Position numbers and translations under genes: made by a program
Notes under the pieces: generated by a model
Databases searched by the model: none
What the model was told of the DNA's origin: nothing
What the model saw: only the letters and a program-made list of their open reading frames with translations
Source: a virus
Taxonomy: Duplodnaviria > Heunggongvirae > Uroviricota > Caudoviricetes
Reading direction: 5' to 3' (one strand)
IMG/VR virus record: IMGVR_UViG_3300025009_000056
Length of the DNA stretch: 64,000 nucleotides
Part shown: in pieces, positions 11,075 through 64,000 of the stretch
How the letters are laid out: every line of letters begins with the position of its first letter
Numbering within the stretch: position 1 is the first letter of the stretch

Positions 11075-11128
11075 TTAAAAACTGTTTAATTTTTACGCCT
11101 GCAAATATACGATAATTTACGTCTGAAA

Positions 11129-20100: not shown

Positions 20101-20179
20101 TCTTTGATGAATCGACATTGATTGTATAGTTTTTCTTTCTCCCCTTTGGCTTACTATACGTGAATTTCAAACTACCCAT
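11129..20179 (-). CDS. Giant (~3016 aa) multidomain polyvalent-type effector protein: two tandem-related ART modules (second with His->Asn), ParB-like nuclease domain, coiled coils, many FEDGG motifs
   Basis: Uninterrupted 9.1-kb ORF; ORF track start 20257 is TTG (rc of caa) lying upstream of a predicted promoter; first ATG (MGSLKF...) at 20177..20179; motifs VVYHGTVKD, VVYNRAKAKIY, QEGRHRALAAKSLG. Confidence 0.75.
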   Translation of the reverse strand: MGSLKFTYSKPKGRKKNYTINVDSSKSVIPLSVIGGVVASIMGKKDIVRDSGKSIVVKKSPEKYLAKFRQKIYSISDKMGIDEVAKKYGIPQMKTNVIYDAIEKGLIAEHENESDFQKQKEIIYANLMEFGLKYYDLPKEKRPVRKQPTLVDFKISRKKNDDVLLAPNGKPSNLTPEQYELVRTPEFKAWFGDWINDPQNASKVVDSNGEPLVVYHGTVKDFTIFSLKHATKQTGADWGKMGFYFTNNKSLAEDFTRYKWSLAEKSELKKGSKVIDCFLSIKTPKTVNARQWTMTSTSPEILRDELIKDNHDGYFIEPLNDDDKNYWINLFGERGIKELINNQYVAFYPEQIKLADGTNVTFDAENPDIRFEDGGVISTDERAVVIGAMQQRAPKEYVNAINEFLDFDVEKDTLIKADYDRMKRAFSEKVSLVVKKGFSDFAWDIIHRDNLEYKNLHDFLFKEGTPVNGNSTILNELHWGGKLKKSDIQAMNKYEREIYDYYNTPDRNTELRRKVAEKLKLIKGRIVKREPKSVTEEKRIQEVTGKINPKIKRVIDEVAEAFRLEIKESYKRMYNNIISEFQKEIVGKGTNNVDILYPLNVNDKNNFERNREIRYALRPFTFVKDENSAHNIYQLENTDELIEKISDEKSTMDISSYKNKMYDKLSDLLLGANDDLLNVESSGKRKDQDIYFNYGSDISFTLSNQIIINFSKYGNPFYQYPSRFQNLRLPDGKVIAAPSEAEIKNTLKDKFEQGGFVECPVGTKVQTLLFSKDNFTLKKAKAWLKKHGYKTDVDEKENTYRFRQVEPCEFNEESFRTIEFTDGIKAVVGCPVAEMEDGGMVAPNGKTSNLTPEQYELVRTPEFLSWFGDWINDPENASKVVDSNGEPLVVYNRAKAKIYEFDKQKQLIGWLGRGFYFSISKDEFKEYGKTILPVFLNIRKLFIVEGESPSDVISEVKSINNDYFNDDVSEILRGNNYDGIKFNHWDRGAIISCFDSTQIKLADGTNTTFNAENPDIRFENGGNVSTEINWDYDDAKRKHVEFDMPLYAITEKSKTAKIVEMTPDEYMYDVSKGFFLSTGENMQYVSDDNVIEIAELMKAGDLFEIPYLTIGGKSQEGRHRALAAKSLGAKTIPVIVFRELSDSEYKTVIDDIKNMGIGEMSEYLKENFGISEPIKQREYDKFKSVVKYIKFEDGGSVDNLGYHGGDLYKKAEGIGSTLRGTSVPFTGYYFYSSIEPAMQRGNRLTGEKSVKAVDFSQYNLLRPSNSSDYFWIKNALSQTPNIVSADRVYSDWDSMISKLKEYSLFSDFISEFKNELTAKKDEIIKSLLENSVKAENRLEQPSDGTNIVDTSATIILKALGYEGIDVRNIPVKEGDANPDSGSYGSVIFDIKEDSVVDINDGEKNNDTEMNLVNNKSNKMEKGDSVNNITLQDDNSIADGGAAYNGELHTNDGIPMVVKETGQPIEIEQAEIVITRKAAQMHCEELSKINQDGGGKAIDCDCLIESSKENNLIDEKMKGAIKPNGEILEDGGVVPTQDSVYRLLGAVGDETNYLYSKPVSEWDEYDISNWNAKKNKLKQMFRDNTLDLPFEDGGRLDDRKSKINTFWGNLFKEMQENSVARRVLDMKSAEKADLFISDFNSSDYVDKFRVDKNPIYKNKVGISLKTEYWKFDKGDVVGENIDKTLNNEGNIIQDTIENDNSMSLFDQNQVQMAGITMFEDGGAVRDINTPFTREDVEKERTIYFENNNKVVFEKKQNPVYYFGRHYFMDDEGNWELGASWGSQYVEDVVFEAEHDRNIGVLSRDYSNGELFENGGDVQKSATVIVISDRNPLSTQIHKITGDWWNSSDFEDLEIQEYFSIVKHSKSGEYFIIFRGSYVAQVDDNVIDDDISYIKSKYGFGFLKNVAILYKDKFENGDVVKGEYPHPFVKMVDEQVVKAGKDYRAIGDLIYNLSGDHNRQKRQEVISAIVGEKVPVAKSGISAIESELKKWILEKYPNANVTNRFEPVLTEEVVVPVISEEQNIGVENNEIKDEQMNKNKDKEDSNPVGRYEFGMEYEEDFPTMDMLNTGAKASLSWGVGKLEKLTESLRDMNFHPTNKILIKAIKQYKDGNVSGAEESLKEFKIACLKEIAEFKQPVSDTGEEKPYLDPVYEAGILERFEKALSNYNETKDKKYFNVQHGDTSNTVVGTLAEFIIEVVIKSKQPEKLSVYYDLLEKAGLSKTMVKDDYMYNWITYAYDKTDETLFYEIFAESNLNLFEFIPEKFKKKSDVRPLSYKLDPSDKNLINIMDDFAATKDSVARDILKAIRFDEHGVSATNANVLAFINGKVSKKGNFCLTKDCIETYDIPDGGEIKSGNDSDKTRYPEYIGVLPQNNNNRNIINVNSLEIFANAMYKSGIVQKAGVAGVVIKIDELVVKVSSENLIKATTFMKRLGYDKIEISGSTNKRGLLFMPVGSAADARSLKNPFVLVMPLHIEGYDIPVEILDYPCFDCNDETVKVVNRESIESIDISPDGLVNTEIGKTKKKLQKDADVEKERLQKEITRAKDESREQIEAINKREAEKNKRAAEKKLKEDLVRQKAEELKAEKARKDKEEADRLAEEKRIADEKAELDEKERLLAEKNAARIIAQQEKAGKKMSAKQKELAEKKAEEMALLQLLSSESERQESELELLEVEMSDGEEMISNSGKAKPTQSEINDFIDYMSEFYGKQGLYAKDYNGGFTREQIAAAVDKYVKDKETNWGHGDSVDRELTRDKYLAPYSIDKKEAWEMTAAERWSAERKRAIQADGMAYVKKHMATLDEYKYGSHKKMIEQAIADGKPVPVEVLADYPDLVSKKEKGGKIESEKPFESAKEIEDYFGVSVNVYDEYTNEVELESPKASEITFGWSIDGQWIDGVSLKSIRLPKTRSLITASWISDKINKEKIYKDFSVIFKDILVKSGHSGSSINVYPTTYGIGVAVIFNPSGSNDKEQITNLLKQTGVSFTNEYSDAGYVYRYKISKSKENIDKIKEYLDKINN
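16700..16950 (-). other. ParB/sulfiredoxin-like nuclease domain within giant protein 2
   Basis: rc of 16801..16850 encodes GGKSQEGRHRALAAKSL (ParB N-domain GxxRxxA-type motif). Confidence 0.45.
17050..17600 (-). other. ART module B (paralogous duplicate, His replaced by Asn: VVYNRAKAKIY...GRGFYFSIS) ending in NPDIRFENGG
   Basis: rc of 17475..17520 encodes EPLVVYNRAKAKIYEF; >90% nt identity to module A over 17521..17650 vs 19541..19690. Confidence 0.5.
19000..19650 (-). other. ART module A (catalytic His intact: VVYHGT...GFYFTNN) ending in NPDIRFEDGG
   Basis: rc of ~19530..19550 encodes PLVVYHG; module begins ...TPEFKAWFGDW. Confidence 0.5.
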
Positions 20180-28592: not shown

Positions 28593-29063
28593 TCAAGCTA
28601 TCATTTCTTTATATTCAGATTCGAACTGCCTTCCGGCGTATTCCGCCAACTCGCTATTTTTATAGCAGAGGCGCGAACCCGCAGCATTCGCAGCCGTAAC
28701 CCAGAAGTCGTAAGACGTAGCAGCGAACCCGAACGGCGAGGCATTGAAATACGGGTAGTATTTACGTTGTTCCTTATTATTCAAGTCGGCTACCCAAACA
28801 TCATTCAGCGCCTTTGCGATAATCTTTATTTTCTCATAAGCAATCGTATCCTTATCTAAATCAAGAGAAAAATACTTTTTATTAAAGTCCTCCTCCGTTG
28901 TACCGCATTCAATACAGGCATCTGCAAATGTTTTAACACGCAACATTACATTTGATTTACGCTCAATCACCTCACGGAGAGATTTGGCCTCGTCGTTTAG
29001 TTTTTTAGTTTCTTTTTCGATTTCAGCAATACGCTTTTCCGCTTGTTTTTCATTCATTTTCAT
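28593..29063 (-). CDS. Paralog-family protein A (156 aa; N-terminal coiled coil, CIECGTTE, conserved C-terminal PYF-ASPFGF...GSRLCY-SELAEYAG-QF)
   Basis: Clear paralogy with 49778..50257 and 58806..59294. Confidence 0.65.
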   Translation of the reverse strand: MKMNEKQAEKRIAEIEKETKKLNDEAKSLREVIERKSNVMLRVKTFADACIECGTTEEDFNKKYFSLDLDKDTIAYEKIKIIAKALNDVWVADLNNKEQRKYYPYFNASPFGFAATSYDFWVTAANAAGSRLCYKNSELAEYAGRQFESEYKEMIA

Positions 29064-34040: not shown

Positions 34041-34571
34041 TTAATATTCCGGTTCATCAATAACTAAATTATTCAAACTTTTTTTCACAGAGAAAAAGCA
34101 ATCCACGAAAGCACAACAGGTATTAACCTCGCTATATGAATAATGCTTTATTTTTTTCATCGCGTAAATAGTAGATGTGTGGCCGCTATTTTTACCCATC
34201 AGGTATCCGGCTTTTCGCTTATTAATTCCAGATAGATATAATATGGTGAGAATTATGTGTCGCACATTCATGTACTGGCGGCTCACATCATATTTATTTT
34301 GTATTATCTCGAATAGCTTTTCGGGCGTAGGTAATTCGGGGAACCAATAGCCAGCATTATCAACAACTCCCTTTATGACGGCATCATGGATTATATCTGT
34401 ATTTTTCTCGGTACGAATACTGTTTTCAAACCGGATTGGGTTTTCGTAGACTGAATCAATGATAACATCCGATTTAAGATTACTCTTTACAATATCAATA
34501 AGCTTATCGTAATCTTTTTCCGCTACCGCTTTTTCTATTTCACTTAAATTCATATTATAAACCTTTTTCAA
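34041..34571 (-). CDS. Hypothetical protein with DnaA-C-terminal-like helix-turn-helix segment (176 aa)
   Basis: NVRHIILTILYLSGINKRKAGYLMGKNSGHTSTIYAMKKIK resembles DnaA domain IV (..R.IAMYL....S...IG..FG...HTTV..A..KI). Confidence 0.35.
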   Translation of the reverse strand: MKKVYNMNLSEIEKAVAEKDYDKLIDIVKSNLKSDVIIDSVYENPIRFENSIRTEKNTDIIHDAVIKGVVDNAGYWFPELPTPEKLFEIIQNKYDVSRQYMNVRHIILTILYLSGINKRKAGYLMGKNSGHTSTIYAMKKIKHYSYSEVNTCCAFVDCFFSVKKSLNNLVIDEPEY

Positions 34572-35694: not shown

Positions 35695-36618
35695 TTATTC
35701 GTGTTTAGAATTATCACATCCGTCTATCAATGGAAAACGCACACTATTTCCAGTAATCAAAAGAAAATTACAAATATCATATCGGTGCTTAAAAACACCC
35801 TTAATAATTGGCAACATATCATTATAACTAAGATTGTATTTACTTTCTAAAAAGAAAATAAAATCCGGATAATTACATAAAAGATAAAACCTACCATGTA
35901 TTTGTTTGTATTCAAATAGCATTCTTTTGTTTTCATCGGCATAAAAAATAGATTGGGGATAATCCGAATTTGTAAAAGACTTTAAACAGTTTACGGTGTC
36001 ACGAACAAAATCCTCTGGCCTTATCGGAAGCGTATCGCTTATCGCAATATCAGATACAGGCTTTAAATTAGCCGACTCAATGCTAACGGCATCTAACTTA
36101 CCTAATTCCGGCTCCTCATCCACAAATCCGACATCACTCGGTTTATTAATACCCTTAGCGTGTAGCAATTCGAGGTTTTCCGGAGCAATAAAATATCGCT
36201 TGTATCTCTTTTTGGATACCTCGTTTTTCTCAAAAATGCCATCAACCGGAATAAGTAATTTGTGCCGGATAACATGAATAGCTGCCGACAACCTTGTGAT
36301 TTTCTTTTTCGAGAAAGACTCCATACTAGTAATAGAACCGCCTTTCAGTAGTATATTGAGAATGGTGTTCACCTGTGTTTCGTAATCATCGCCTTCAGCG
36401 GCATCGTGTCGCATTTTTTCATCCTGTGCCAAAACTGCGGTAGCATCAAAGAAATCGAATTTGAATGAAAATTTCTTAAACGTGTCATTAAGCCACTTTT
36501 CACCATCTTTCAGACATATCGAAACAGTATTGTCCGGCATGTCATCGGGAACACTCAGTGAAACGATTACTTTTCTCATGTTTTTTGGGTTTTTGGGGTT
36601 TGGTTTTTCAAGTTGCAA
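35695..36618 (-). CDS. Hypothetical protein (307 aa)
   Basis: ORF tiling. Confidence 0.5.
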   Translation of the reverse strand: MQLEKPNPKNPKNMRKVIVSLSVPDDMPDNTVSICLKDGEKWLNDTFKKFSFKFDFFDATAVLAQDEKMRHDAAEGDDYETQVNTILNILLKGGSITSMESFSKKKITRLSAAIHVIRHKLLIPVDGIFEKNEVSKKRYKRYFIAPENLELLHAKGINKPSDVGFVDEEPELGKLDAVSIESANLKPVSDIAISDTLPIRPEDFVRDTVNCLKSFTNSDYPQSIFYADENKRMLFEYKQIHGRFYLLCNYPDFIFFLESKYNLSYNDMLPIIKGVFKHRYDICNFLLITGNSVRFPLIDGCDNSKHE

Positions 36619-37988: not shown

Positions 37989-38609
37989 TTAATATTGTAG
38001 GTTCCTGCATTCATCAGTATACAACAGTTGGTGTCTTTGCTGCGCCTCATCCCAATTTTTTGGAAAAGTATATTTTCCAAGCCAAACCTCACTAAATGCT
38101 TTTTTCATTTGTTTAGCGCACACATCGTAAGGAAGTTGACCAACACCAGTGCCAAGTCCACTAATTGTAACCGTATTAAACCGACTCTCACTTGTCAATA
38201 AATTAAATATAGCTTTCGATGCCAGATAAACATTGACTGTGTTTTTTAATATCATCGGAACACGCATGGTTGGTGCTGATATGCAAAAAGGTATTTGCTC
38301 AAAATCAGTTTCAATCAACTCAGCCTGTCCAACCAAAATTTCACCCAAATATTTTTCACGTATCCTTTTCTGAAGTTTATCCTGAATCTGCTTTCCTATT
38401 TTTCTCGTAATAAGCATATCTAATCCACCGTCCATGAATCCGAAAGAATTAGCCGGAGATACAACGCAATCAGTTTTCAAAGAAAAAAAATCCCCGCAAT
38501 AAATAGAAACATCATTACAGTCTTGGAATTGCAATTTCCATTGTTTACACATTTCTTTATTTCTATCTATTAGTTGGAATTTCATCAGGAGCAAATGTTT
38601 TATGTTCAT
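37989..38609 (-). CDS. Macro domain protein (ADP-ribose binding/ADP-ribosyl hydrolase-like)
   Basis: DVSIYCGDFFSLKTDCVVSPANSFGFMDGGLDMLI matches macro signature (..GDIt....DaIVNaAN..l..GGGvd.ai); start may be an internal Met (38552/38585). Confidence 0.6.
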   Translation of the reverse strand: MNIKHLLLMKFQLIDRNKEMCKQWKLQFQDCNDVSIYCGDFFSLKTDCVVSPANSFGFMDGGLDMLITRKIGKQIQDKLQKRIREKYLGEILVGQAELIETDFEQIPFCISAPTMRVPMILKNTVNVYLASKAIFNLLTSESRFNTVTISGLGTGVGQLPYDVCAKQMKKAFSEVWLGKYTFPKNWDEAQQRHQLLYTDECRNLQY

Positions 38610-40510: not shown

Positions 40511-41992
40511 TTAAAGCTGAGAATTAATTCGCTGTCTGATTTCACTTAAACTTGTCTCTGTGACCAGTTTTCCATCCTCAAAAACAGTTTCCAGCTCCCC
40601 GTAATTTTCTACCTCTCTTGTCACTTGGTCTTCAAGATGTAATTTGTCGACATCGGAATACACATAAAGCAGACCCTTTGCTGATTTTTTAAATCCGGAA
40701 TCAGTTTTTGGATTTTTGAAAATATCCCGCGCTTCACCATTGACCTGCCCCCATGTAGCTTTCATCGCAAATCCAAATGTGTCGCGCGTAACATACTCGT
40801 AAGTGTACGAGCCTATTCCAAAAACAAGATTACTGGCAGAAAATCCTTTCACCTCAAGTTTTTCGAGTATCAGTTTTTGTCTTTCAAGCGTTATGGAATC
40901 GCCGTAAATAAGTCCGACTTTTGGATGTAAAACCTTATACCCCTTTTTGTTAATTTCTCCGCCAAAAATATCCCAAAGGATTTCATATGCACCTTTGCGC
41001 TGGCTTTCCGTAATAAGTGATTCAGGTGTTTCATCATCTCCGCAGATAATTTTCACAGGGTCTCCGCTGTCGGGACGAATAACAACTCTGCCATCTCTGG
41101 CGAGAATTTCATTTTTCAGCGCGGGAAGATATTCTGTCATAACTTTCCAAAAATCCCATGTGTCAGAAACAATACTAACGATACCATTGGGATATAACTC
41201 TGTAATAAGTCTTTTAAATGTATTAATTTCGCCCTCTTTTTCACCAAGGCTCATAACGCTATGCTCGGTAGCGGGAACACTACCACCAATAAGCTCTTTG
41301 TCGGAATCAGCGTTGTAATATTTCTCCAGAAAATCAATCGCTGGGATGGTATCGGTTCCGGTAAAAGACAATAAGTGTGCAGCACCACTCAGTAAAGCAT
41401 CCTCGTTTCCACTCATGCCCCTAAAGCTGAAATCATGCCCCTGCCACTGAATAAAAGATTTGTCATATCCTGTTTTCTCAGCATATTCCTCAAGTCTTTT
41501 GCGATATTGAAAAGCTGTGGTGGCACTCGTGATAGGCTTCCACATAATATTACTCATCAATGTCTCAAAATAATTAGTAAGCCAGAAAAACTTAGGCATG
41601 GTGTTCACAATGGTGAAAACCGGAACACCAATCGGAACCAAACGTCCCTCACTGATAGCCTTTATCCGAATAGGCAAATATCCTAAATCATGGAGTTCGG
41701 CAATATGCTCACACGGGATAGCATCAACACCAAGATAATTATCCATCCGGCGTTTATACTCGCGCAAAACCTGTTCTTTCGGCTTTTCAAAAAACCCCTT
41801 ATTCCACCTTTCAATCAGGTATTCTTTTACAAAATACTGAAGCCCGAAAAACACAACCTCATCTATTCCGGCAATACGGCTCTGTCTGGGTGTAAAGTTT
41901 GAGTAAACATACTCTGTTCCGGCGGGATACTGTCTGCGGTGGTCAGCTTTATACCCGTCGATTAGGCACATTGGATTGATGTCTGTAATCAT
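40511..41992 (-). CDS. Nicotinamide phosphoribosyltransferase-like protein (NAMPT/NadV family; candidate Namat of NARP1)
   Basis: 493 aa; N-terminal DGYKADHRRQYP (cf. NAMPT DSYK.THY.QYP); size and family fit. Confidence 0.7.
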   Translation of the reverse strand: MITDINPMCLIDGYKADHRRQYPAGTEYVYSNFTPRQSRIAGIDEVVFFGLQYFVKEYLIERWNKGFFEKPKEQVLREYKRRMDNYLGVDAIPCEHIAELHDLGYLPIRIKAISEGRLVPIGVPVFTIVNTMPKFFWLTNYFETLMSNIMWKPITSATTAFQYRKRLEEYAEKTGYDKSFIQWQGHDFSFRGMSGNEDALLSGAAHLLSFTGTDTIPAIDFLEKYYNADSDKELIGGSVPATEHSVMSLGEKEGEINTFKRLITELYPNGIVSIVSDTWDFWKVMTEYLPALKNEILARDGRVVIRPDSGDPVKIICGDDETPESLITESQRKGAYEILWDIFGGEINKKGYKVLHPKVGLIYGDSITLERQKLILEKLEVKGFSASNLVFGIGSYTYEYVTRDTFGFAMKATWGQVNGEARDIFKNPKTDSGFKKSAKGLLYVYSDVDKLHLEDQVTREVENYGELETVFEDGKLVTETSLSEIRQRINSQL

Positions 41993-44447: not shown

Positions 44448-44741
44448 TTATGCGAGTCTATCCACAACCAGCGATACAAACTTATTCACCCCAATCCGGT
44501 AAACAAGATTTACAGCTAACTGCTCGAGTAAGTCAATAGGCAAATAGCCCTGCTTTGCGCTAACGCTAAATTTCTCCAGCGTATCCATCGCGTCAGCTTT
44601 AGTCTTTCCAAATTCGAAAACCTTTTCACCATCCTTGAGTCCGGTTACAAGGACAGAGAATTCTAGATTTTCAAAGCACACGGAGTACCCCTTTTTACTA
44701 AGGTACTCCATGTTTTCTTTCAGTTTATCAGCTGTATCCAT
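44448..44741 (-). CDS. Hypothetical protein (97 aa)
   Basis: ORF tiling. Confidence 0.45.
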   Translation of the reverse strand: MDTADKLKENMEYLSKKGYSVCFENLEFSVLVTGLKDGEKVFEFGKTKADAMDTLEKFSVSAKQGYLPIDLLEQLAVNLVYRIGVNKFVSLVVDRLA

Positions 44742-45811
44742 TAAATTTCTGTTTCAATCACCTTTGTTTCGATTCTTTTGATTTTGTATTGCACTCCATC
44801 AATTGAACAAAGAATGCTTTTCGCCACCACCTCTTTAAACGAATCAGAACATCCTTTTAGGAGTAAAATATAATCATCAATACTCTCAAAGGTGAAAGAT
44901 TGTTTGGCTGAAACAATACTTGCTTCTGCATGAACTATACTATCTTCAGACTTCTGTTTCACAGGCGCATTATTGGTATGAGCGGATACATTTTCCTTTG
45001 GTTTAACCTCACCTCCAACTGGGACGCGCGGAGCGCTCTGCGTGTCTCCGGCAAGATATTTATCTACCAACACAAAGGCATTCTGTAAAACACTCATGAT
45101 TGCAGACACATTTTTATTATCATCCATTTTTCTTGTTTTCGACAGAGCGATGACAAAATCTTTATCAATGAATGCATTTTTGAATTTCTTTTTACCGGAA
45201 GCATATCTCTCGCAAATAAATTTTTCATTTTTCTTTTTCAGATAATTAACGGCGCTCATGCCAGCCGTATCGTTATATCCGAGAATAGAGAAAACATGCT
45301 TTGTGTTGTAGAGGGCAAGTTTTCGCTCTCCATCGACAAATACGGCGATATTGCCATATTTGCCAGCGCTAATCTGTCTGATTTCTGTCTTTTTCATTTG
45401 TTTTGTGTTTAGTTTTATTTTTTGTTTTTCTTTGACCTCATCCCTGTATGTATACGCTGAATTTATCAACACCATCTGACTCATCTTTTCAAAAACACCA
45501 GCAAACCATGTTTCTATTTCTGCGTATCCGTCCGGATTCAGTTTTTTGAGATTGCCGATTAAATCCAGCACGAAAAACCTATCACCAAAATACAGGCAAC
45601 GCTTAACTTTTTCAATTGATTTCACTGTAAGCGGGATAAGGTCGTGGTCGTGTTTGTAATTGAGATAGACCTTGAAGCTTTCTTTGGTTGATAACCCCAG
45701 AATTTTACACACATCAAGGGTGCAGTAAATTGCTTTTTTCTCATAATAGTCAGCAATCACCCTTAACGAATTTCCTTTGTAGCTGAATTTTTCGAGTTTT
45801 TTATTTTCCAT
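44741..45811 (-). CDS. Bro-N/KilA-N-like DNA-binding domain protein (anti-repressor-like; two N-terminal repeats)
   Basis: MENKKLEKFSYKGNSLRVIADYYEKKAIYCTLDVCKILGLS and second copy QISAGKYGNIAVFVDGERKLALYNTKHVFSILGYNDTAG resemble Bro-N. Confidence 0.4.
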   Translation of the reverse strand: MENKKLEKFSYKGNSLRVIADYYEKKAIYCTLDVCKILGLSTKESFKVYLNYKHDHDLIPLTVKSIEKVKRCLYFGDRFFVLDLIGNLKKLNPDGYAEIETWFAGVFEKMSQMVLINSAYTYRDEVKEKQKIKLNTKQMKKTEIRQISAGKYGNIAVFVDGERKLALYNTKHVFSILGYNDTAGMSAVNYLKKKNEKFICERYASGKKKFKNAFIDKDFVIALSKTRKMDDNKNVSAIMSVLQNAFVLVDKYLAGDTQSAPRVPVGGEVKPKENVSAHTNNAPVKQKSEDSIVHAEASIVSAKQSFTFESIDDYILLLKGCSDSFKEVVAKSILCSIDGVQYKIKRIETKVIETEI

Positions 45812-48439: not shown

Positions 48440-48480
48440 GGGTTTCAGATGCAAATGTACGAAAACATTTTTAACATCCG
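48440..48480 (-). promoter_or_regulatory. Putative promoter, conserved cgTACATTTG -7 box
   Basis: Same TTTTcgTACATTTG element as at 51046..51053 and 61026..61033, ~25 nt upstream of ATG 48424. Confidence 0.35.
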
Positions 48481-49777: not shown

Positions 49778-50257
49778 TTACATTATGAATTTTTTATAAA
49801 TTTCAGCGAACTGTTTTCCTGCATATTCCGCCAGTTCGCTGGTTCTATAACAGAGGCGCGAACCCGCACGCGTATTCGCAAACCAGAAGCCGTAAAACGC
49901 AGCACCGAACCCGAACGGCGAGGCAGCGAAGTAGGGGTAATATTTACGTTGGTCTTTATTATCCCAGTCGGGTATCCAACCCTCATTTAACGCCTGAGCG
50001 ACTATTTTGGCTTTTTCATAAAAAATGTTATCCTCACTAATACCAATATACGACTTGAACTTTTTGTTGAATTCGTCCTCGGTAGTACCGCACTCAATAC
50101 AGGCATCGGCAAATGTCTTTACCCTTTTTGTAACATCGCTCTCGGCATCAATAATTTCACGGAGTTTAGCTGATTCATTATTGAGCTTTTCAGACTCTTT
50201 AGTAATCTCAGTAAGACGCTTTTGTGCATTTAATACACTTTCTTTGTTCGGTTTCAT
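49778..50257 (-). CDS. Paralog-family protein B (159 aa)
   Basis: VKTFADACIECGTTE...DWDNKDQRKYYPYFAASPFGF...GSRLCYRTSELAEYAGKQF. Confidence 0.65.
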   Translation of the reverse strand: MKPNKESVLNAQKRLTEITKESEKLNNESAKLREIIDAESDVTKRVKTFADACIECGTTEDEFNKKFKSYIGISEDNIFYEKAKIVAQALNEGWIPDWDNKDQRKYYPYFAASPFGFGAAFYGFWFANTRAGSRLCYRTSELAEYAGKQFAEIYKKFIM

Positions 50258-50289: not shown

Positions 50290-51012
50290 TTACAACACCC
50301 TAACACATTGAATAACATTATCACCATCCAGACCCGTGCTGATAACCTCCGAAATAGTAACAGTCAAATCCTTACCCCTTGTCTTCTGAGCCTTTCCGTT
50401 TATAACAGGCATTAAATATGGATACATACCTCCTACGAATTTAACACCACTGAATACACGCACGGATATATTACCAAATACCGCGTCTGACAAGCATTCA
50501 GTATAGTTGTCATTTGCATTAAATCCATTTGTACGAAAACTCAATGTAATAGTATCGCCAACAGAAAGGAGTGTGGCTGAATCAACCAAGTCTTTTTTCT
50601 GTTGTTCAATGGAGTCAATGTAAGCAATATACTGGGGGTGGTTTTTAATATACTCCGATGTTGCTCCATTATAGTTACTAGCACTCCAAACGCAATACTG
50701 AAAATCCTTATCCATAATTTCATCAACCATGCGGCCAGCATACTTACCTCCCCAAAAATAATTTTCCGGAAGACCAGTTTTCTCCTGACGGTCAAACGAA
50801 CTCGATTTCCCCCTCAGCGAATCATCAATCTCAATACTTGGATACAACTCCTTAACCTTATCAATATCCATTGAGATGTTTTTGATATAATAAAAGCTAT
50901 GATTCACACCCACCTGATGATGCTTTCCGTAGGCATCAGTCTTATATTCTGGATTCGACTCATAATCCCAAAGGGTGTAGTATTGTGTTGCAAATCCGAT
51001 TAACTTTTTCAT
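50290..51012 (-). CDS. Hypothetical protein (240 aa), first gene of operon driven by conserved promoter
   Basis: ATG at 51010..51012; ORF tiling. Confidence 0.55.
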   Translation of the reverse strand: MKKLIGFATQYYTLWDYESNPEYKTDAYGKHHQVGVNHSFYYIKNISMDIDKVKELYPSIEIDDSLRGKSSSFDRQEKTGLPENYFWGGKYAGRMVDEIMDKDFQYCVWSASNYNGATSEYIKNHPQYIAYIDSIEQQKKDLVDSATLLSVGDTITLSFRTNGFNANDNYTECLSDAVFGNISVRVFSGVKFVGGMYPYLMPVINGKAQKTRGKDLTVTISEVISTGLDGDNVIQCVRVL

Positions 51013-51039: not shown

Positions 51040-51080
51040 ACGACACAAATGTACGAAGAAAAAACACAGGTTTAGAACAT
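51040..51080 (-). promoter_or_regulatory. Putative promoter, conserved TTTTcgTACATTTG -7 box
   Basis: rc of 51046..51053 = TACATTTG (TAnnTTTG), 34 nt upstream of ATG 51012; block 51044..51092 homologous to 61024..61072. Confidence 0.45.
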
Positions 51081-51329
51081 TTAACTCTTATTTAAGAATT
51101 CAAAGGTTAACCTCTTTTAACATTCACTCGCAAATCGGCCTATAATCACGCCCTCATACATCCCAGCTTGACATATAGGTTTTTAGATTATTTATTCAGG
51201 GAATTGCACAATCCATTAACAAAACACTATACACCTGACTTACTGCAATATAGTCAAAAATAAGCCGATTTTTCGGGGAACTTTCACTCCGATACGGGGA
51301 ATTGAATTGCAAATATACGAAATTCCCCA

Positions 51330-51472
51330 CATAAAAAGCGTTTCTATTTTACTTTTTGGCACTTTTTACCCCGATTTGTAAAATAGGATGCATTTTTAGC
51401 ACCCAAATACAACATGAAAAACACCCACTATTTTACTTTTTGACCATTTTTGGTCAATTTGTAAAATAGAAC
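51330..51472. repeat. Intergenic repeat region 1: two ~43-bp units bounded by 9-bp inverted repeat CTATTTTAC...GTAAAATAG (51344..51386, 51428..51469)
   Basis: Unit 2 is near-palindromic (CTATTTTACTTTTTGACCA-TTTT-TGGTCAATTTGTAAAATAG); 51330..51410 homologous to 61136..61215. Confidence 0.6.
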
Positions 51473-51486
51473 GACTTATTTACATA

Positions 51487-51512
51487 AAAAAACCGGACGA
51501 ATCCGGTTTCTC
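51487..51512 (-). terminator. Rho-independent terminator (bidirectional hairpin) after gene 51529..51723
   Basis: AAAAAACCGGAcgaaTCCGGTTTCTCTTTTTT: 7-bp GC-rich stem with U-tracts on both strands. Confidence 0.5.
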
Positions 51513-54668: not shown

Positions 54669-54743
54669 TGGTTCCGGAGGGACTTGAACCCCCGACCCTC
54701 TGCTTATGAGGCAGACGCTCTATACCAACTGAGCTACGGAACC
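54669..54743 (-). tRNA. tRNA-Met (anticodon CAU; elongator-type; could be tRNA-Ile2 if lysidinylated)
   Basis: rc: GGTTCCGTAGCTCAGTTGGTATAGAGCGTCTGCCTCATAAGCAGAGGGTCGGGGGTTCAAGTCCCTCCGGAACCA; full cloverleaf, anticodon loop CTCATAA. Confidence 0.85.
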
Positions 54744-58805: not shown

Positions 58806-59294
58806 TTACATAATAAACGCCTCGTAAATTTCAACGAACTGCTTTCTACTGTATTCCGCCAGTTCGCTGGTTCTATAACAGAGGCGCGAACCCGCAGTCG
58901 TAGCCGTACTCCAGCGGCCGTAATGCGTACCAGCGAACCCGAACGGCGAGGCATTGAAGTATGGATACCACTTGCGCTGGTCTTTATTATCCCAATCCGG
59001 TGTCCAACCCTCATTAAAAGCCTTAATAAGAATAATGAGTTTCTGATACGCAATTGCATCGGGTGTCAATCCGAGTTTTGAATATTTTTTATCAAACTCC
59101 ACCTCCGTTGTGCCACATTCAATACAGGCATCGGCGAATGTCTTAACCCTGTCGGTAATATCACCCTTAGAATTAAGAATTACCCGAAGCTCTTCGGCTT
59201 CTTTTTGAATTTTAGCGAGACGCTTTTGCGCCTGTTCCCTACTTGTTGTTTTCATGTTGTTATTTGTTGAATTCATAATCAGATTTAATTCCAA
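58806..59294 (-). CDS. Paralog-family protein C (162 aa)
   Basis: VKTFADACIECGTTE...DWDNKDQRKWYPYFNASPFGF...GSRLCYRTSELAEYSRKQF. Confidence 0.65.
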   Translation of the reverse strand: MELNLIMNSTNNNMKTTSREQAQKRLAKIQKEAEELRVILNSKGDITDRVKTFADACIECGTTEVEFDKKYSKLGLTPDAIAYQKLIILIKAFNEGWTPDWDNKDQRKWYPYFNASPFGFAGTHYGRWSTATTAGSRLCYRTSELAEYSRKQFVEIYEAFIM

Positions 59295-60749: not shown

Positions 60750-61001
60750 TTATTGTTTTGAGAGAGCCAATTTAGCCTCAACAAGAGCAAGCCTCATAGC
60801 ATCAAGCTCTCGGTAGAAATCAGAATACATTTCATAAGTGATAACCATATCACCCGTCTTGATATAAAAGCCAAGTTTGCCGGAATATTTCAATTTCATA
60901 TCAAATTTTGTTTGCTGATTTTGAATAATAACACCGCCGCCAGAATCACGTTCATCACGCAAGACTAAGCCACCTATCAAATTAAATGTTTTTGTTGCCA
61001 T
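60750..61001 (-). CDS. Hypothetical protein (~83 aa; ORF track start 61028 is a TTG inside the promoter -7 box; ATG MATKTF at 60999..61001)
   Basis: rc of 61026..61028 = TTG, part of TACATTTG. Confidence 0.45.
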   Translation of the reverse strand: MATKTFNLIGGLVLRDERDSGGGVIIQNQQTKFDMKLKYSGKLGFYIKTGDMVITYEMYSDFYRELDAMRLALVEAKLALSKQ

Positions 61002-61019: not shown

Positions 61020-61060
61020 CGGAGACAAATGTACGAAGAAAAAACACTGGTTTGATATAT
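61020..61060 (-). promoter_or_regulatory. Putative promoter, conserved TTTTcgTACATTTG -7 box
   Basis: rc of 61026..61033 = TACATTTG, ~25 nt upstream of ATG 61001; block homologous to 51044..51092. Confidence 0.45.
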
Positions 61061-61135
61061 TTAACTTCCTCGTAACACTTTTGTCAGTTTTAGGCTACCG
61101 AATTTATTCCAGATGCAAATATAAGGATTTTCCCA

Positions 61136-61447
61136 GACAAAAAGCGTTTCTATTTTACTTTTTGGCACTTTTTATCCTGATTTGTAAAATAGAATGCATT
61201 TTTCAGCATCTAAATCCGGCATAAAAAAAGACCCGCTATTTTACTTTTTGGCTCTTTTTACCCTGTTTTGTAAAATAGAATACATTTTCAATCCATCAGC
61301 AAGCTTTAAAATCATGTTTCTATTTTACTTTTTGGCACTTTTTACCCCGATTTGTAAAACAGGATGCATTTTCAGCATCTAAATCCGGCATGAAAAAGAC
61401 CCGCTATTTTACTTTTTGGCACTTTTTACCCTAATTTGTAAAATAGA
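61136..61447. repeat. Intergenic repeat region 2: four ~43-bp units bounded by 9-bp inverted repeat CTATTTTAC...GTAAAATAG (61150..61192, 61236..61278, 61320..61362, 61404..61446), arranged as two ~170-bp super-units each containing a GATGC-loop-GCATC hairpin
   Basis: Direct reading; unit cores CTATTTTACTTTTTGGCACTTTTTACCC--ATTTGTAAAATAG; last unit overlaps the stop of gene 61431..62330. Confidence 0.65.
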
Positions 61448-62330
61448 AATACTTTTTCCCTGTATCCAGATGTTTTTGTTCACCGAGATAGTGATTCATT
61501 CGGTTATAGTTGTATTTTGCGATAGGCGCGTCATCGTATTGCCAGTTCACTATAAAATAATGCCTATTATCGTAATCAATCTCAGCTTTAAGTAGCTTAT
61601 ACTCCTGCCTTTTACACGTGTATTGATACTCGTCTATCAACTCCCTACATCTACTCTCGTATTCAGGAAGCACAAAGAAGCAGTCGGTAAGATAATACAG
61701 AAATCCATCTCCCAGCTCACGCGCGATAGACAGCGCAATATTATATACCGTATCAACCACATCAAGTCTCACTACAGATGTGTCCGAATGCTTTGTTTCA
61801 CATACATCTTTTTCACCGTCGAAAATAGTAATATTTCCACGCTTACTCAGACAGCCGATAGCGGCGTTTCGCGCATCCTTATATTCAGACTGTTTTTTAA
61901 ATCCGGCATTATACACTTTTTCATCTATTGCACCCAGATTGTATAGTGTATTGAAATAACAGGCATTAATATCCAGCCCAACTATATCAACTGGATTGCC
62001 TTTTTTCATCAAATCGACTAATGCATCCTCGTTGTAAAAAACTGTTTTGGAATTCATTCTCGCATTGTCTGTATTCATTGGAACATACAAACCGCGCTCC
62101 ACTCGTTTACGCACACACTTATCAACCAGATATATTATATGCACACCGTCAAGACGGCTTTCAATATTGGTTAAAATTGTCTGCGTTTTATATGCACCGG
62201 ATAAAAGAGGCTCGATTACAACACTTGATGTGTATTCAGTTGCTTTATATGGAATTTTAAGGCGGTGGTACATATCCACCAGCCGCTTATATTTTTCAAT
62301 CTGTACCTCTGAATAAGTTTTCTCGGACAT
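61431..62330 (-). CDS. Hypothetical protein (299 aa)
   Basis: ORF tiling; stop TAG at 61431..61433 lies inside repeat unit 4. Confidence 0.5.
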   Translation of the reverse strand: MSEKTYSEVQIEKYKRLVDMYHRLKIPYKATEYTSSVVIEPLLSGAYKTQTILTNIESRLDGVHIIYLVDKCVRKRVERGLYVPMNTDNARMNSKTVFYNEDALVDLMKKGNPVDIVGLDINACYFNTLYNLGAIDEKVYNAGFKKQSEYKDARNAAIGCLSKRGNITIFDGEKDVCETKHSDTSVVRLDVVDTVYNIALSIARELGDGFLYYLTDCFFVLPEYESRCRELIDEYQYTCKRQEYKLLKAEIDYDNRHYFIVNWQYDDAPIAKYNYNRMNHYLGEQKHLDTGKKYFYFTN

Positions 62331-63943: not shown

Positions 63944-64000
63944 TATGCCGTCGAATTCCCACCAAGAAAAGTCACCGTATGCATAAACGATATTTTTTAC

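Follow-up and report, generated by a model that had tools for sequence, protein, structure and literature searches.

Phased arrays of a 43-bp dyad unit at the heads of three consecutive gene blocks in a large Bacteroidota phage

The window analyzed here is a stretch of 64,000 nucleotides from a virus of the Caudoviricetes (IMG/VR record IMGVR_UViG_3300025009_000056), a groundwater phage of roughly 195 kb whose host phylum is Bacteroidota. All of its genes lie on the minus strand, and clusters of a repeated, dyad-symmetric unit sit at the boundaries between gene blocks. Two such arrays fall within the window, the main one near 61 kb and a shorter one near 51 kb, while a third, made of four further units, lies at about 72.3 kb in window coordinates, on a longer contig of the same phage that extends beyond the window end. 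Together, they head three consecutive blocks of small genes, each of approximately 10 kb, at one end of the longest reconstructed stretch, and, counted from the end of the longest contig on that side, they lie at 0.5, 11.5 and 21.5 kb. The outermost array lies 483 nt from this contig end, after a gene-less stretch that is first A-rich and then G/T-rich; other assemblies of the same phage end at different points. No repeat of this gene-less left-hand region, which would mean a terminal repeat, was found elsewhere, and no DNA similarity to isolated phages or plasmids was detected. In the direction of transcription, the features of the two arrays within the window are as follows.

61431..62330, minus strand: 299-aa gene, last in the preceding block; stop codon inside U2a
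61404..61446, minus strand: unit U2a, first of the main array in the transcription direction; sense strand CTATTTTACAAATTAGGGTAAAAAGTGCCAAAAAGTAAAATAG; match to CTATTTTAC-N20-30-GTAAAATAG
61363..61403, minus strand: linker type 1, copy 1; sense cgggtctttttcatgccggatttagatgctgaaaatgcatc, its 3' end AAAATGCATC abutting the next unit
61320..61362, minus strand: unit U2b; left-arm variant CTGTTTTAC
61279..61319, minus strand: linker type 2; sense aaacatgattttaaagcttgctgatggattgaaaatgtatt
61236..61278, minus strand: unit U2c; exact pattern match
61193..61235, minus strand: linker type 1, copy 2; two A/T more than copy 1
61150..61192, minus strand: unit U2d, last of the main array and closest to the promoter; exact pattern match
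61116..61123, minus strand: predicted promoter P1, a -7 box of the Bacteroidota host type, TATATTTG(CA), 26 nt past U2d
61022..61066, minus strand: conserved block with predicted promoter P2, just upstream of the ATG at 61001; 87% identical to 51042-51086
61026..61033, minus strand: predicted promoter P2, -7 box TACATTTG, a consensus match
60750..61001, minus strand: 83-aa gene, first in the ~10-kb block that the main array heads; no domain match
51490..51509, minus strand: canonical intrinsic terminator of the preceding block, AAACCGGATTCGTCCGGTTT followed by T7, upstream of the 51-kb array
51428..51469, minus strand: unit U3a, 42 bp, with a palindromic 'P-type' core TTGACCAAAAATGGTCAA
51387..51427, minus strand: linker type 1, diverged copy; sense tgggtgtttttcatgttgtatttgggtgctaaaaatgcatc
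51344..51386, minus strand: unit U3b, equal to the unit consensus
51310..51317, minus strand: predicted -7 box TATATTTG of P1, 26 nt downstream of U3b
50290..51012, minus strand: 240-aa gene, first in the block that the 51-kb array heads; homologues at ~60% identity widespread

The layout is common to all three loci: the end of the previous block is followed by the units, then by 15 or 26 nt, the sequence TATATTTGCA, a leader, the string cgTACATTTG and the ATG. As for the genes themselves, the 83-aa gene has no homologue outside this phage, while the homologues of the 240-aa gene, one of which is attributed by its source to a metagenome-assembled genome of a Sediminibacterium sp., are many and uninformative about the arrays. 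Neighbouring blocks also share a paralogous gene of 156 aa.

The 43-bp dyad units are real and stand far above chance. Namely, the pattern CTATTTTAC-N20-30-GTAAAATAG is matched exactly at 61150-61192, 61236-61278, 61404-61446, 51344-51386 and 51428-51469, and not one of 100 dinucleotide shuffles contained any match to it. The 9-mer occurs 12 times in the window against an expectation of 1.05, with 11 of these copies inside the two arrays, and U2b (61320-61362) carries a single arm change, reading GTAAAACAG on the plus strand. This agrees with an earlier note, made from the letters of the window alone, which had placed four 43-bp units between 61150 and 61446 and two more at 51344-51469. When the 81 kb examined were scanned with a unit profile, 10 units were recovered at three gene-block boundaries, some 10-11 kb apart, and none elsewhere, all ten of them matching the profile on one strand. 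Moreover, A- and T-tracts accompany each of the units, an A5 tract 5-6 nt upstream and a T5-6 tract 6 nt downstream; in copy 1 of linker type 1 (61363..61403), for instance, the T5 tract stands at the very start, 6 nt past the unit.

The linkers are homologous to one another, both within the main array and between loci. In particular, Tandem Repeats Finder reports for 61146-61458 a period of 84 (3.5 copies, score 394) and a period of 168 (1.8 copies, 91% matches, score 542), so that alternate linkers do repeat, as the earlier note had held. Its finer description of the linkers holds in part: a GATGC-N7-GCATC hairpin, claimed for each linker, is exact only once, at 61363-61379, the other linker reading AATGC-N8-GCATC, and the string taaatccggcat..aaaaagacccg is exact at 61380-61403, its copy at 61212-61235 having two extra A. 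The ends of linker type 2, for their part, prolong the arm complementarity of both adjoining units. Nor is the main array strictly intergenic, as had been supposed, since its last unit in coordinate order, U2a, overlaps the stop codon of the open reading frame 61431-62330; the left arm of U2a encodes the final codons and the stop (61431-61433) of that gene.

What is conserved within a unit differs sharply between its parts. The outer boxes, CTATTTTACAAA and AAAAGTAAAATAG, are nearly invariant, with 2 mismatches in 198 arm positions, as opposed to 60 mismatches in 275 positions of the 25-nt A-tract core (Fisher p = 2e-13, arms versus core); on average, pairs of arms are 98% identical and pairs of cores 66%, the latter diverging down to 40%. 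A comparison of the units yielded no compensatory changes in the arms. The box sequence itself is constrained, beyond any need for base-pairing. What is more, a related phage (L053) keeps a unit at the position of U2a, with both 9-mers and the flanking A-tracts intact, next to an upstream gene whose DNA identity is 78% and whose third codon positions are only 55% identical, and on this comparison the units are under purifying selection. The earlier note had named as a possible refutation that close relatives might lack the repeats although their flanking genes are conserved; this check speaks for a function, since the unit is present in the single relative recovered. The hairpin of the linker, by contrast, is absent there and, its exact copy being found just once in the window, it was discarded as a conserved element.

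Seven contigs from different public samples carry the 61-kb locus, two of them breaking off inside the array, and the sequenced part of the intergenic region is identical in all. More distant comparisons were negative: two homologues of the 299-aa gene (41% and 32% identical) have no units, and neither do relatives reached in a viral contig collection through a Band_7 protein (54% and 41% identity, on contigs of 299 and 215 kb) near that gene. As side observations, the 32% homologue has a different two-copy repeat of its own, and, of the two Band_7 relatives, one carries repeated motifs of another kind and the other uses ribosome-binding sites of a type known from a different phylum.

The units are also phased. 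Their start-to-start spacings are 52, 62, 84, 84, 84, 86 and 83 bp, all of them within 2 bp of a multiple of 10.5, and the two half-sites of a unit lie 34 bp apart, centre to centre, an unusual distance for a simple dimeric regulator. In a wedge model, with the parameters of Bolshoy et al. 1991, the three arrays take ranks 2-4 for curvature among all 250-bp windows in the 81 kb, with peaks of 35-39 degrees against a 99th percentile of 28.9.

The same regularity extends to the downstream signals. Namely, TATATTTGCA, a 10-mer identical at all three loci, lies 26 nt past the last unit at the 61-kb and 51-kb arrays and 15 nt past it at the third, and these two distances differ by 11 bp, one helical turn. 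It contains the predicted -7 box of P1, and host-type TAnnTTTG boxes of this kind precede many genes of the phage, including those directly past each array. That said, both P1 and P2 are predicted promoters, identified as consensus matches, and the P1 boxes lack the -33 TTTG found at a spacing of 19-21 nt at other promoters of the phage. The claim that the array lies immediately upstream of a conserved promoter therefore holds on the minus, coding strand, where the box at 61116-61123 is 26 nt from the last unit, and not otherwise. In particular, a sigma-70-type promoter on the plus strand (TTGGCA-17-TAAAAT) was rejected because the host signals are of the Bacteroidota type and such sites read against the genes, and a sigma-54 promoter was rejected by inspection, its -12 element being unfit.

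Taken together, we tentatively favour, at a probability of about 0.42, the reading that these are phased protein-binding arrays controlling the adjacent promoter, with the units most likely being docking sites for a DNA-binding protein. This fits the earlier note's suggestion of iterated dyad sites of the operator type at a promoter: the boxes are conserved well above the sequence between them, and the -7 box keeps a fixed, in-phase position. The arrays would then be cis-acting DNA elements marking the heads of the three blocks, each unit presenting its inverted boxes around a bendable core with phased A-tracts, and, since units are whole helical turns apart, all boxes would face one side of intrinsically curved DNA. 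A sequence-specific protein, encoded by the phage or by the host, may bind the boxes cooperatively and wrap or loop the curved DNA, and the resulting nucleoprotein complex would control the promoter P1, used by the host RNA polymerase, 15 or 26 nt downstream. Because P1 is without a properly spaced -33 element, activation is somewhat more likely than repression. A second possible effect would be that of a roadblock to read-through out of the preceding block.

Precedents exist for such an arrangement. In phage phi29, protein p4 binds inverted repeats that lie within intrinsically curved DNA, upstream of its late promoter A3, where a nucleoprotein complex switches transcription. The present units resemble them in having short inverted boxes more than one helical turn apart, in being curved by A-tracts and in being iterated before a promoter without a good upstream element. 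They differ in box sequence, in arm spacing (25 nt here, 15 nt in phi29), in occupying three loci about 10 kb apart and in belonging to a phage of a Bacteroidota host with -33/-7 promoters; nothing resembling p4 or p6 was recognised among the proteins of the phage. Another likeness is to the C1 operators of phage P1 and to the stoperators of mycobacteriophage L5, in which one recognition sequence is likewise reused at intergenic operon boundaries in one orientation and may block read-through. Those, however, are single, asymmetric sites of 13-17 bp, as opposed to 43-bp dyads in phased tandem arrays with conserved linkers, and the phage gives no sign of lysogeny.

Which protein would do the binding? 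The genes adjoining the arrays have no domain match, and two candidates put forward in the earlier note have to be given up, since neither the supposedly DnaA-C-like frame at 34041-34553 nor the supposedly Bro-N-like one at 44741-45811 gives a Pfam or PHROG match even at E<=1. Recognisable DNA-binding domains occur only far from the arrays, in two places.

35695-36579: winged-helix HTH_39 protein, which nothing ties to the arrays
L049:26038-26520 (a contig of the phage): small open reading frame whose match to the DnaA C-terminal helix-turn-helix, at 27.3 bits, stays below the cut-off of 31.5

The latter lies about 5 kb beyond the window start and more than 55 kb from the arrays, and nothing ties it to them either. 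The family of 156-aa paralogues has no match among solved structures in a sequence search, and its structure prediction (mean pLDDT 40) is unusable. Since no binding protein was identified, the term operator stays here an inferred one.

The most serious alternative, which we still regard as unlikely, is that the units act in RNA. Namely, they would be transcribed as parts of the block transcripts, at their 3' ends or between cistrons, and fold there as hairpins, either arm with arm or right arm with the left arm of the next unit. Such hairpins would protect the RNA from 3' exonucleases, serve for its processing or terminate transcription weakly, and the units may belong to a wider palindromic family of Bacteroidota with a host factor of its own. 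The main array is probably transcribed, since no terminator separates its first unit from the upstream gene, the stop codon of which that unit overlaps, and the same is seen in L053; at the 51-kb locus, on the other hand, a strong canonical terminator already stands ahead of the array. That terminator (51490-51509), incidentally, looks quite unlike the units. The A5 tract upstream and the T5-6 tract downstream of every unit are an arrangement known around terminators, yet an intrinsic terminator is a stable GC-rich stem followed directly by a U tract, and here the stems are weak and the T5 tract starts 6 nt past them; in the arrays, a terminator scan flagged only marginal linker hairpins of 5-6 bp. 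Apart from that of U3a (-15.7 kcal/mol), the nine single-unit hairpins come to just -4.7 to -9.9 kcal/mol, with AU-rich stems and 25-nt loops, and core self-complementarity and inner-stem covariation are significant in P-type units only.

Hairpins between units speak in favour of RNA: in 5 of 7 cases the sense RNA forms the more stable one, by 2-6 kcal/mol over the antisense RNA. In addition, the two A-to-G substitutions in the arms each leave a G.U pair in the sense RNA, and 31 wobble positions are compatible with the sense strand against 14 with the antisense strand, though the units arose by duplication and the counts are therefore not independent. It speaks against a function in RNA that the arms keep their sequence without any compensatory change while cores fall to 40% identity. 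There is no match to an Rfam family: a search of the whole window for known RNA families gave, at the curated cut-off, a single tRNA gene, and relaxed scans of the array region gave noise. A type III toxin-antitoxin locus of the ToxI kind runs from a promoter through direct repeats and a terminator to a toxin gene, whereas the order observed here is terminator or stop codon, repeats, promoter, gene.

A comparison with the REP and BIME elements of enterobacteria cuts both ways. As in those, palindromes of about 40 bp and a few types of conserved linker form mosaic arrays that lie past stop codons between genes on the same strand. REPs, however, have GC-rich contiguous stems, a GTAG or CGTC tag and hundreds of copies, and here the units are AT-rich around a 25-nt core, neither tag is present, and there are 10 copies in 81 kb, at three sites. 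Likewise, BIME units alternate in orientation, whereas the phage units all point one way. REP and BIME elements have known roles both as protein-binding sites and as stabilisers of mRNA 3' ends (PMC2817692, PMC3333891).

Support for such an element comes from Bacteroidales contigs that carry units with the same arms and a similar inner palindrome, some of them in arrays with repeated linkers (L196, L228, L197). These units usually lie 4-45 nt past a stop codon, and some lie between convergent genes, where control of a promoter makes little sense; this counts against our preferred reading. That said, the core similarity between the phage units and the chromosomal ones is borderline only. The chromosomal units often adjoin genes for AAA_14/DUF4143 ATPases, in surroundings that resemble defence islands. 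Moreover, an unrelated viral contig of 380 kb has arrays built on the same 10-mer (TGTAAAATAG / CTATTTTACA), and no proteins common to the phage and the examined parts of that contig were found. We think it doubtful, and slightly less likely than a role in RNA, that all of these, namely the phage arrays, those of the 380-kb contig and the 42-bp palindromic units and arrays of Bacteroidales, form one undescribed family, which would be recognised by a protein conserved across Bacteroidota and would have been taken over by large phages to mark or control their early blocks.

The remaining alternatives we regard as improbable. The first of them is that the arrays are iteron-type replication origins, at which an initiator would bind the phased dyads and adjacent transcription would help to open the DNA. 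The units are indeed phased (at 52, 62, 83, 84 and 86 bp), dyad-symmetric and intrinsically curved, a promoter adjoins each array, the third array adjoins a 92%-AT stretch, about 340 nt away within the gene-less 483-nt region, and the phage has the sub-threshold DnaA-like frame described above. Origins of phage T4 are promoter-linked, and the origin of phage lambda likewise has about four phased, dyad-symmetric, bent repeats beside transcription. The lambda origin, however, is one locus, inside the initiator gene and with an AT-rich unwinding region, whereas here there are three loci, no replication gene flanks any of them, the neighbours being small and without known relatives or domains, and the DnaA-C-like frame is far away. 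The two arrays within the window have no unwinding region, the AT content of their intergenic regions reaching at most 80% over 40 bp; no cluster of DnaA boxes is near them, and none of the 24 relaxed boxes in 81 kb is near an array; and the cumulative GC skew is monotonic over the whole window, without an inflection. The earlier note's alternative of a replication origin is in this way weakened.

Slightly less probable than an origin, in our estimate, are structural sites for genome entry, packaging or segregation, that is, checkpoints of injection as in phage T5 or dispersed centromere-like sites as in plasmid F and phage N15. In plasmid F, sopC is a 43-bp unit with a short inverted repeat, present in 12 abutting tandem copies beside sopAB, and in N15 partition sites are scattered. 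The unit length is the same here and so is the tandem plan, even if, unlike in sopC, the units are separated by linkers of 41-43 bp, and no ParA or ParB, adjacent or elsewhere, is among the Pfam matches listed for 101 proteins in 81 kb of the ~195-kb genome. The spacing of the arrays from the contig end and the odd, unrepeated gene-less stretch before the outermost one would suit a site of entry. In particular, the injection stop signal of T5, in its left terminal repeat, is an untranslated region full of repeats, inverted repeats and iterated 9-mer boxes, about 10 kb from the genome end in an arm of small early genes (10.1101/866236). Its boxes, however, are host DnaA boxes, in one region per terminal repeat, as opposed to another 9-mer at three loci tied to promoters. 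What is more, the contig end need not be a genome end, other assemblies end elsewhere, the tight in-phase coupling to the -7 box would be left unexplained, and nothing ties the units to a terminase.

Still less probable are tandem promoters of a phage-encoded RNA polymerase, with the invariant AT-rich 9-10-mer as the promoter itself. Jumbo phages with RNA polymerases of their own do have a conserved AT-rich motif of about 10 nt before presumed early operons (PMC7598289), an invariant motif of this kind is found upstream of the blocks here, and on the unrelated 380-kb contig the several arrays built on the same 9-mer are intergenic. Against this, the motif copies within each unit face each other, ordinary host-type boxes stand before many genes and right past each array, and no RNA polymerase family is among the Pfam matches listed for the same 101 proteins in 81 kb of the genome, a listing of 25 of the 33 matched families, such subunits being, admittedly, very divergent. 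The least credible of the readings, and one already disfavoured, is that of functionless leftovers of recent local duplication and gene conversion: the periods of 84 and 168 bp do indicate that a two-unit module was duplicated, and neighbouring blocks have the 156-aa paralogues in common, yet the arms are invariant while the cores drift, a unit is kept in a relative with saturated synonymous divergence and units and -7 box are arranged alike at all three loci. Finally, a CRISPR array, already dismissed in the earlier note, is rejected, and so is an RNA mimic of CRISPR repeats, because the linkers repeat within the array (period 168, 91%) and between loci, and no search turned up a bacterial CRISPR repeat with the boxes: no array with them was found in 185,579 species genomes, a metagenome collection and IMG/VR, the sole exception being non-CRISPR arrays with repeating linkers, and the extended boxes gave 24 single chance matches and no array in the metagenome collection, from which the phage itself is absent.

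What, then, would the arrays mean for the biology of this phage and its relatives? If they are merely operators, they are an ordinary, though neatly built, case of phage cis-regulation. To our knowledge, very little is known of how large Bacteroidota phages schedule their gene expression, and the arrays offer a handle on it that is defined by sequence, with a pair of 12-13-bp boxes that could be used as bait for the regulator. They also delimit three presumably co-regulated blocks of genes without an assigned function, which probably act in the takeover of the host. We know of no REP-like family described in Bacteroidota, and if the phage and chromosomal units are truly one family, they would be the Bacteroidota counterpart of REP and BIME elements, with a defined recognition box. 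Should the link to the chromosomal units and to the second phage hold, the box would be the hallmark of a broader class of non-coding elements in this phylum.

The four 43-bp units that the earlier note had placed at 61136-61447 are indeed present: three match CTATTTTAC-N25-GTAAAATAG exactly and the third in the row carries a single change in an arm. The pattern is never matched in dinucleotide shuffles of the window, and Tandem Repeats Finder scores the array at 394 for a period of 84 bp and at 542 for one of 168 bp. The two related units described for the intergenic region near 51 kb were likewise recovered, and 11 of the 12 copies of the 9-mer in the window (1.05 expected) lie inside these two clusters. 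The array is not a CRISPR, and the GATGC-N7-GCATC hairpin claimed for each linker occurs in its exact form once only. An 81-kb composite was assembled in the direction of transcription from L016/L050 (a longer contig of the same phage, reaching about 8.9 kb past window position 64000), the reverse-complemented window and the 17 kb preceding the window start (contig L049). Scanned with a profile of the unit, this composite contains exactly ten copies, all on the sense strand and in three clusters, with zero copies in the remaining 60 kb; from their positions, the clusters therefore follow each other at intervals of approximately 11.0 and 10.0 kb.

Unit clusters and associated features
Composite 484, 536, 598, 682; sense; outermost array (L050:484-724, window-equivalent about 72180-72420, beyond the window end), four units spaced 52, 62 and 84 bp
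Composite 11458, 11542, 11626, 11712; sense; main array (window 61136-61447, plus-strand starts 61150, 61236, 61320, 61404), four 43-bp units
Composite 21435, 21518; sense; 51-kb pair (window 51344 and 51428), two further units
L050:1-483; gene-less stretch, terminal part of contig k127_100516
Window 51042-51086 and 61022-61066; P2-containing block, 87% identical, AGTTAAAT..AAACC.GTGTTTTTTCTTCGTACATTTGT

The order of parts is identical at all three loci. Each begins with the end of the previous block, be it a canonical terminator (51490-51509, at the 51-kb pair), a stop codon (main array) or the gene-less 483 nt (outermost array), and continues with the units, whose basic module is unit, 41-43-nt linker and unit. 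After a further 15 or 26 nt comes TATATTTGCA, a host-type -7 box (P1), followed by a leader of 65-260 nt, the promoter-like box cgTACATTTG (P2) and the ATG of the gene that opens a run of small genes of about 10 kb; a paralogous 156-aa gene is present once in each such run. The TATATTTGCA and TACATTTG boxes found after the other clusters recur after the outermost array, and the 87%-identical P2 block sits just ahead of two mutually unrelated first genes. The statement that the array lies upstream of a promoter is valid for the minus strand only. A similar box without an array, cgTACATTTGCA, is found at window 48452-48459, and the unit at L050:484 has its GGCAC/CCCC core inverted, with the A-tracts still on the sense strand. 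The gene-less stretch comprises about 250 nt of purine-rich sequence at 15-18% GC (AAAGAGAAAAAG-type) and then about 150 nt rich in G and T; a second copy was not found elsewhere in the 81 kb, and it may mark an end of the genome or serve as an unwinding region.

In an alignment of the ten phage units with one unit of a relative, positions 1-12 (CTATTTTACAAA) and 31-43 (AAAAGTAAAATAG) are almost invariant, whereas the core between them is variable and rich in A-tracts: mismatches amount to 2/198 in the arms and 60/275 in the cores (p = 2e-13), and mean pairwise identity is 98% and 66%, respectively. An A5 tract precedes every unit and a T5-6 tract follows it after 6 nt, and second-position units of a module have AAAATGCAT(C/T) directly ahead. 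The relative, contig L053, was reached through a homologue of the 299-aa gene (84% amino-acid identity) whose DNA is 78% identical, third codon positions only 55%. The earlier note had counted loss of the repeats beside a conserved gene as evidence against function; here, L053 retains at the equivalent site, across the stop codon, a unit with both arms intact, followed by a diverged linker and the beginning of a second unit. Since the arms are kept despite 55% third-position identity, the units are, by this comparison, under purifying selection. Among the seven contigs from different public samples that carry the main-array locus, two of which end within the array, the sequenced part of the intergenic region is identical.

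The start-to-start spacings of the units (52, 62, 84, 84, 84, 86 and 83 bp) deviate from multiples of 10.5 by no more than 2 bp. P1 lies 26, 26 and 15 nt past the last unit at the three loci, and the two values differ by one helical turn. In a wedge model with Bolshoy/Trifonov parameters, which is indicative only, the three arrays rank 2nd to 4th in predicted curvature among all 250-bp windows of the 81 kb; their local maxima reach 35-39 degrees, where the 99th percentile is 28.9. Judged from the sequence, the arrays are real and functional, and our tentative reading, at a probability of about 0.42, is that of a putative protein-binding array: a protein would bind the unit boxes and act on the adjacent P1. 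This reading fits best because the arm sequence itself is invariant, beyond mere complementarity, because of the helical phasing and curvature, and because a fixed, in-phase site stands just ahead of a -7 box with no -33 element at the proper spacing. As for the protein, the candidates put forward in the earlier note have no domain match, and the only recognisable DNA-binding domains are those of an HTH_39 protein (35695-36579) and of a sub-threshold DnaA-C-like ORF outside the window.

The main rival, which we consider unlikely, is that the arrays act at the RNA level or as a REP/BIME-like element. In its favour, transcription of the upstream gene probably runs on into the main array, which would form a 3' extension of it, predicted inter-unit hairpins are more stable in sense than in antisense RNA in 5 of 7 cases, and non-Watson-Crick positions are G.U-compatible 31 times in sense and 14 in antisense, counts taken over unit copies that are not independent. 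However, the stems are weak and without covariation, core palindromy is significant in two units only, the 51-kb pair already has a strong terminator ahead, and all units share a single orientation. A replication origin, the alternative raised earlier, is improbable: the arrays are probably not one, given three separate loci, no unwinding element beside the two in-window arrays, no DnaA boxes near them, and a GC skew that is monotonic across the window. The surroundings of the following ORF may be a better candidate region, with perfect TTATCCACA boxes at composite 74173 and 76706, 1-4 kb from it.

L049:26038-26520; DnaA-C-like 160-aa ORF about 5 kb before the window start, Bac_DnaA_C helix-turn-helix at 27.3 bits (cut-off 31.5, hence sub-threshold)

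A role in DNA entry, packaging or partition would draw its main support from the closeness of the outermost array to the contig end and from analogy with the injection stop signal of T5 (10.1101/866236), and strikes us as quite improbable. Still less credible are promoters for a phage RNA polymerase: the invariant AT-rich 10-mer does obey the rule known from jumbo-phage early promoters (PMC7598289), but the motifs are convergent and host-type promoters are abundant in the phage. Neutral duplication, contradicted by the conservation pattern, is the least probable reading.

The phage comes from a groundwater metagenome project (PRJNA268031); the window is the final 64 kb of a 124-kb contig, is also contained in a 194-kb scaffold, and the longest contig on record with the 299-aa protein measures 195,945 bp. 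With few exceptions, the ORFs of the window are encoded on the minus strand, where the Bacteroidota -7 box TAnnTTTG precedes many genes, and start codons, by inspection, lack a Shine-Dalgarno sequence.

Selected genes
Window 1925-11074 and 11129-20179, L049:19244-22246; three consecutive polyvalent proteins of 3049, 3016 and 1000 aa
Window 40511-41992; nicotinamide phosphoribosyltransferase
Window 37989-38609; Macro-domain protein
Window 54669-54743; minus; tRNA gene, 72.7 bits, within the second block headed by an array, TAGTTTTG box ahead
Window 58806-59276, 49778-50257 and 28593-29063, L050:1686-2156; paralogous family of four, 156-159 aa

The two polyvalent proteins at 1925-20179, which are of virion type and about 3000 aa long, and the third bear ART-PolyVal, LPD1, LPD11 and DNA-methyltransferase-like regions, a set that looks typical of injected anti-restriction proteins. 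Besides NAD-salvage genes, the phage encodes RecT, a nuclease, SbcCD-like, DnaJ-domain and Band_7 proteins, and numerous small genes without known relatives or domains. NADAR and ribose-phosphate pyrophosphokinase matches among the phage's proteins, together with the phosphoribosyltransferase and the Macro protein, suggest a putative NAD-regeneration or ADP-ribose counter-defence set. The paralogues (PHROG 11581, function unknown) share 55-67% mutual identity, and for three of the four an array is found 1-2 kb upstream. Homologues of the 240-aa gene at 50290-51012 are numerous at about 60% identity, one of them source-named Sediminibacterium sp. (a metagenome-assembled genome), which would fit a Chitinophagaceae host.

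When public collections were scanned for the exact pattern, the unit itself proved restricted to this phage lineage. A single contig of the viral collection searched, the unrelated 380-kb IMGVR_UViG_3300046171_000342, has arrays on the same 9-mer: at least four, intergenic between same-strand genes, repeating every 59-100 bp and built the opposite way round as TGTAAAATAGTG-N10-CACTATTTTACA, with a GGCTTCCCTCTTC motif and adjoining long low-complexity tracts (coding strand purine-rich). No proteins common to it and the phage were found in the parts of the contig compared. A 32%-identity homologue of the 299-aa protein (contig L055) is accompanied by its own two-copy direct repeat, ACCGTAGCGCACTTT..CAAAAT.AGCGCAGATAA at L055:4850-4960, upstream of a gene, an indication that such phages commonly carry repeat modules specific to their lineage.

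Similar elements elsewhere
L004:5136-5312; L007:943-1090 and 5116-5560; L085:6760-7050; arrays of the 380-kb viral contig
L196:5702-5966, L228:5395-5494, L197:7693-7808, L205:2222-2263, L218:6985-7026, L256:4985-5026, L168:2006-2094; bacterial 42-bp palindromic units
L169:5843-5886, L206, L207, L232 (three of these four labelled Rufibacter), L214:626-669 (Hymenobacter); 44-bp palindrome with the same arms and a AACGTTCGTT-type core

Most of the 107 both-arm matches in bacterial genomes are lone AT-rich palindromes, as chance predicts. A coherent subset consists of 42-bp palindromes, CTATTTTACA-W4-GGCA-A4-TGCC-W4-TGTAAAATAG (W = A or T), mostly from contigs labelled Bacteroidales or Prevotellaceae, with tandem arrays and repeated linkers in L196 (4 units, period 74-78 bp), L228 and L197 (labelled Oxalobacter). 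A stop codon is usually found within 45 nt of these units, and some of them are located between convergent genes. An AAA_14/DUF4143 ATPase gene adjoins five loci (Pfam-confirmed in four, judged from sequence in L196), and genes for restriction-modification or nucleotidyltransferases occur in the vicinity as well. The 44-bp palindrome stands upstream of a serine resolvase gene at the two loci examined (107 nt in L169, 40 nt in L214), and its core resembles the inverted repeats of Bacteroides invertible promoters. Core similarity between the phage units and the 42-bp bacterial ones is borderline (best scores 8-9; null 95th percentile for the set's best, 7), and the hypothesis that the phage units, the arrays of the 380-kb contig and the 42-bp bacterial palindromes form one family is a doubtful one. 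The arrays are most aptly regarded as an architecturally new form of the phage cis-regulatory repeat array with a putative binding partner. Should the 10-mer box prove to be family-defining across Bacteroidota and their phages, the interest of the finding, which is now moderate, would grow.
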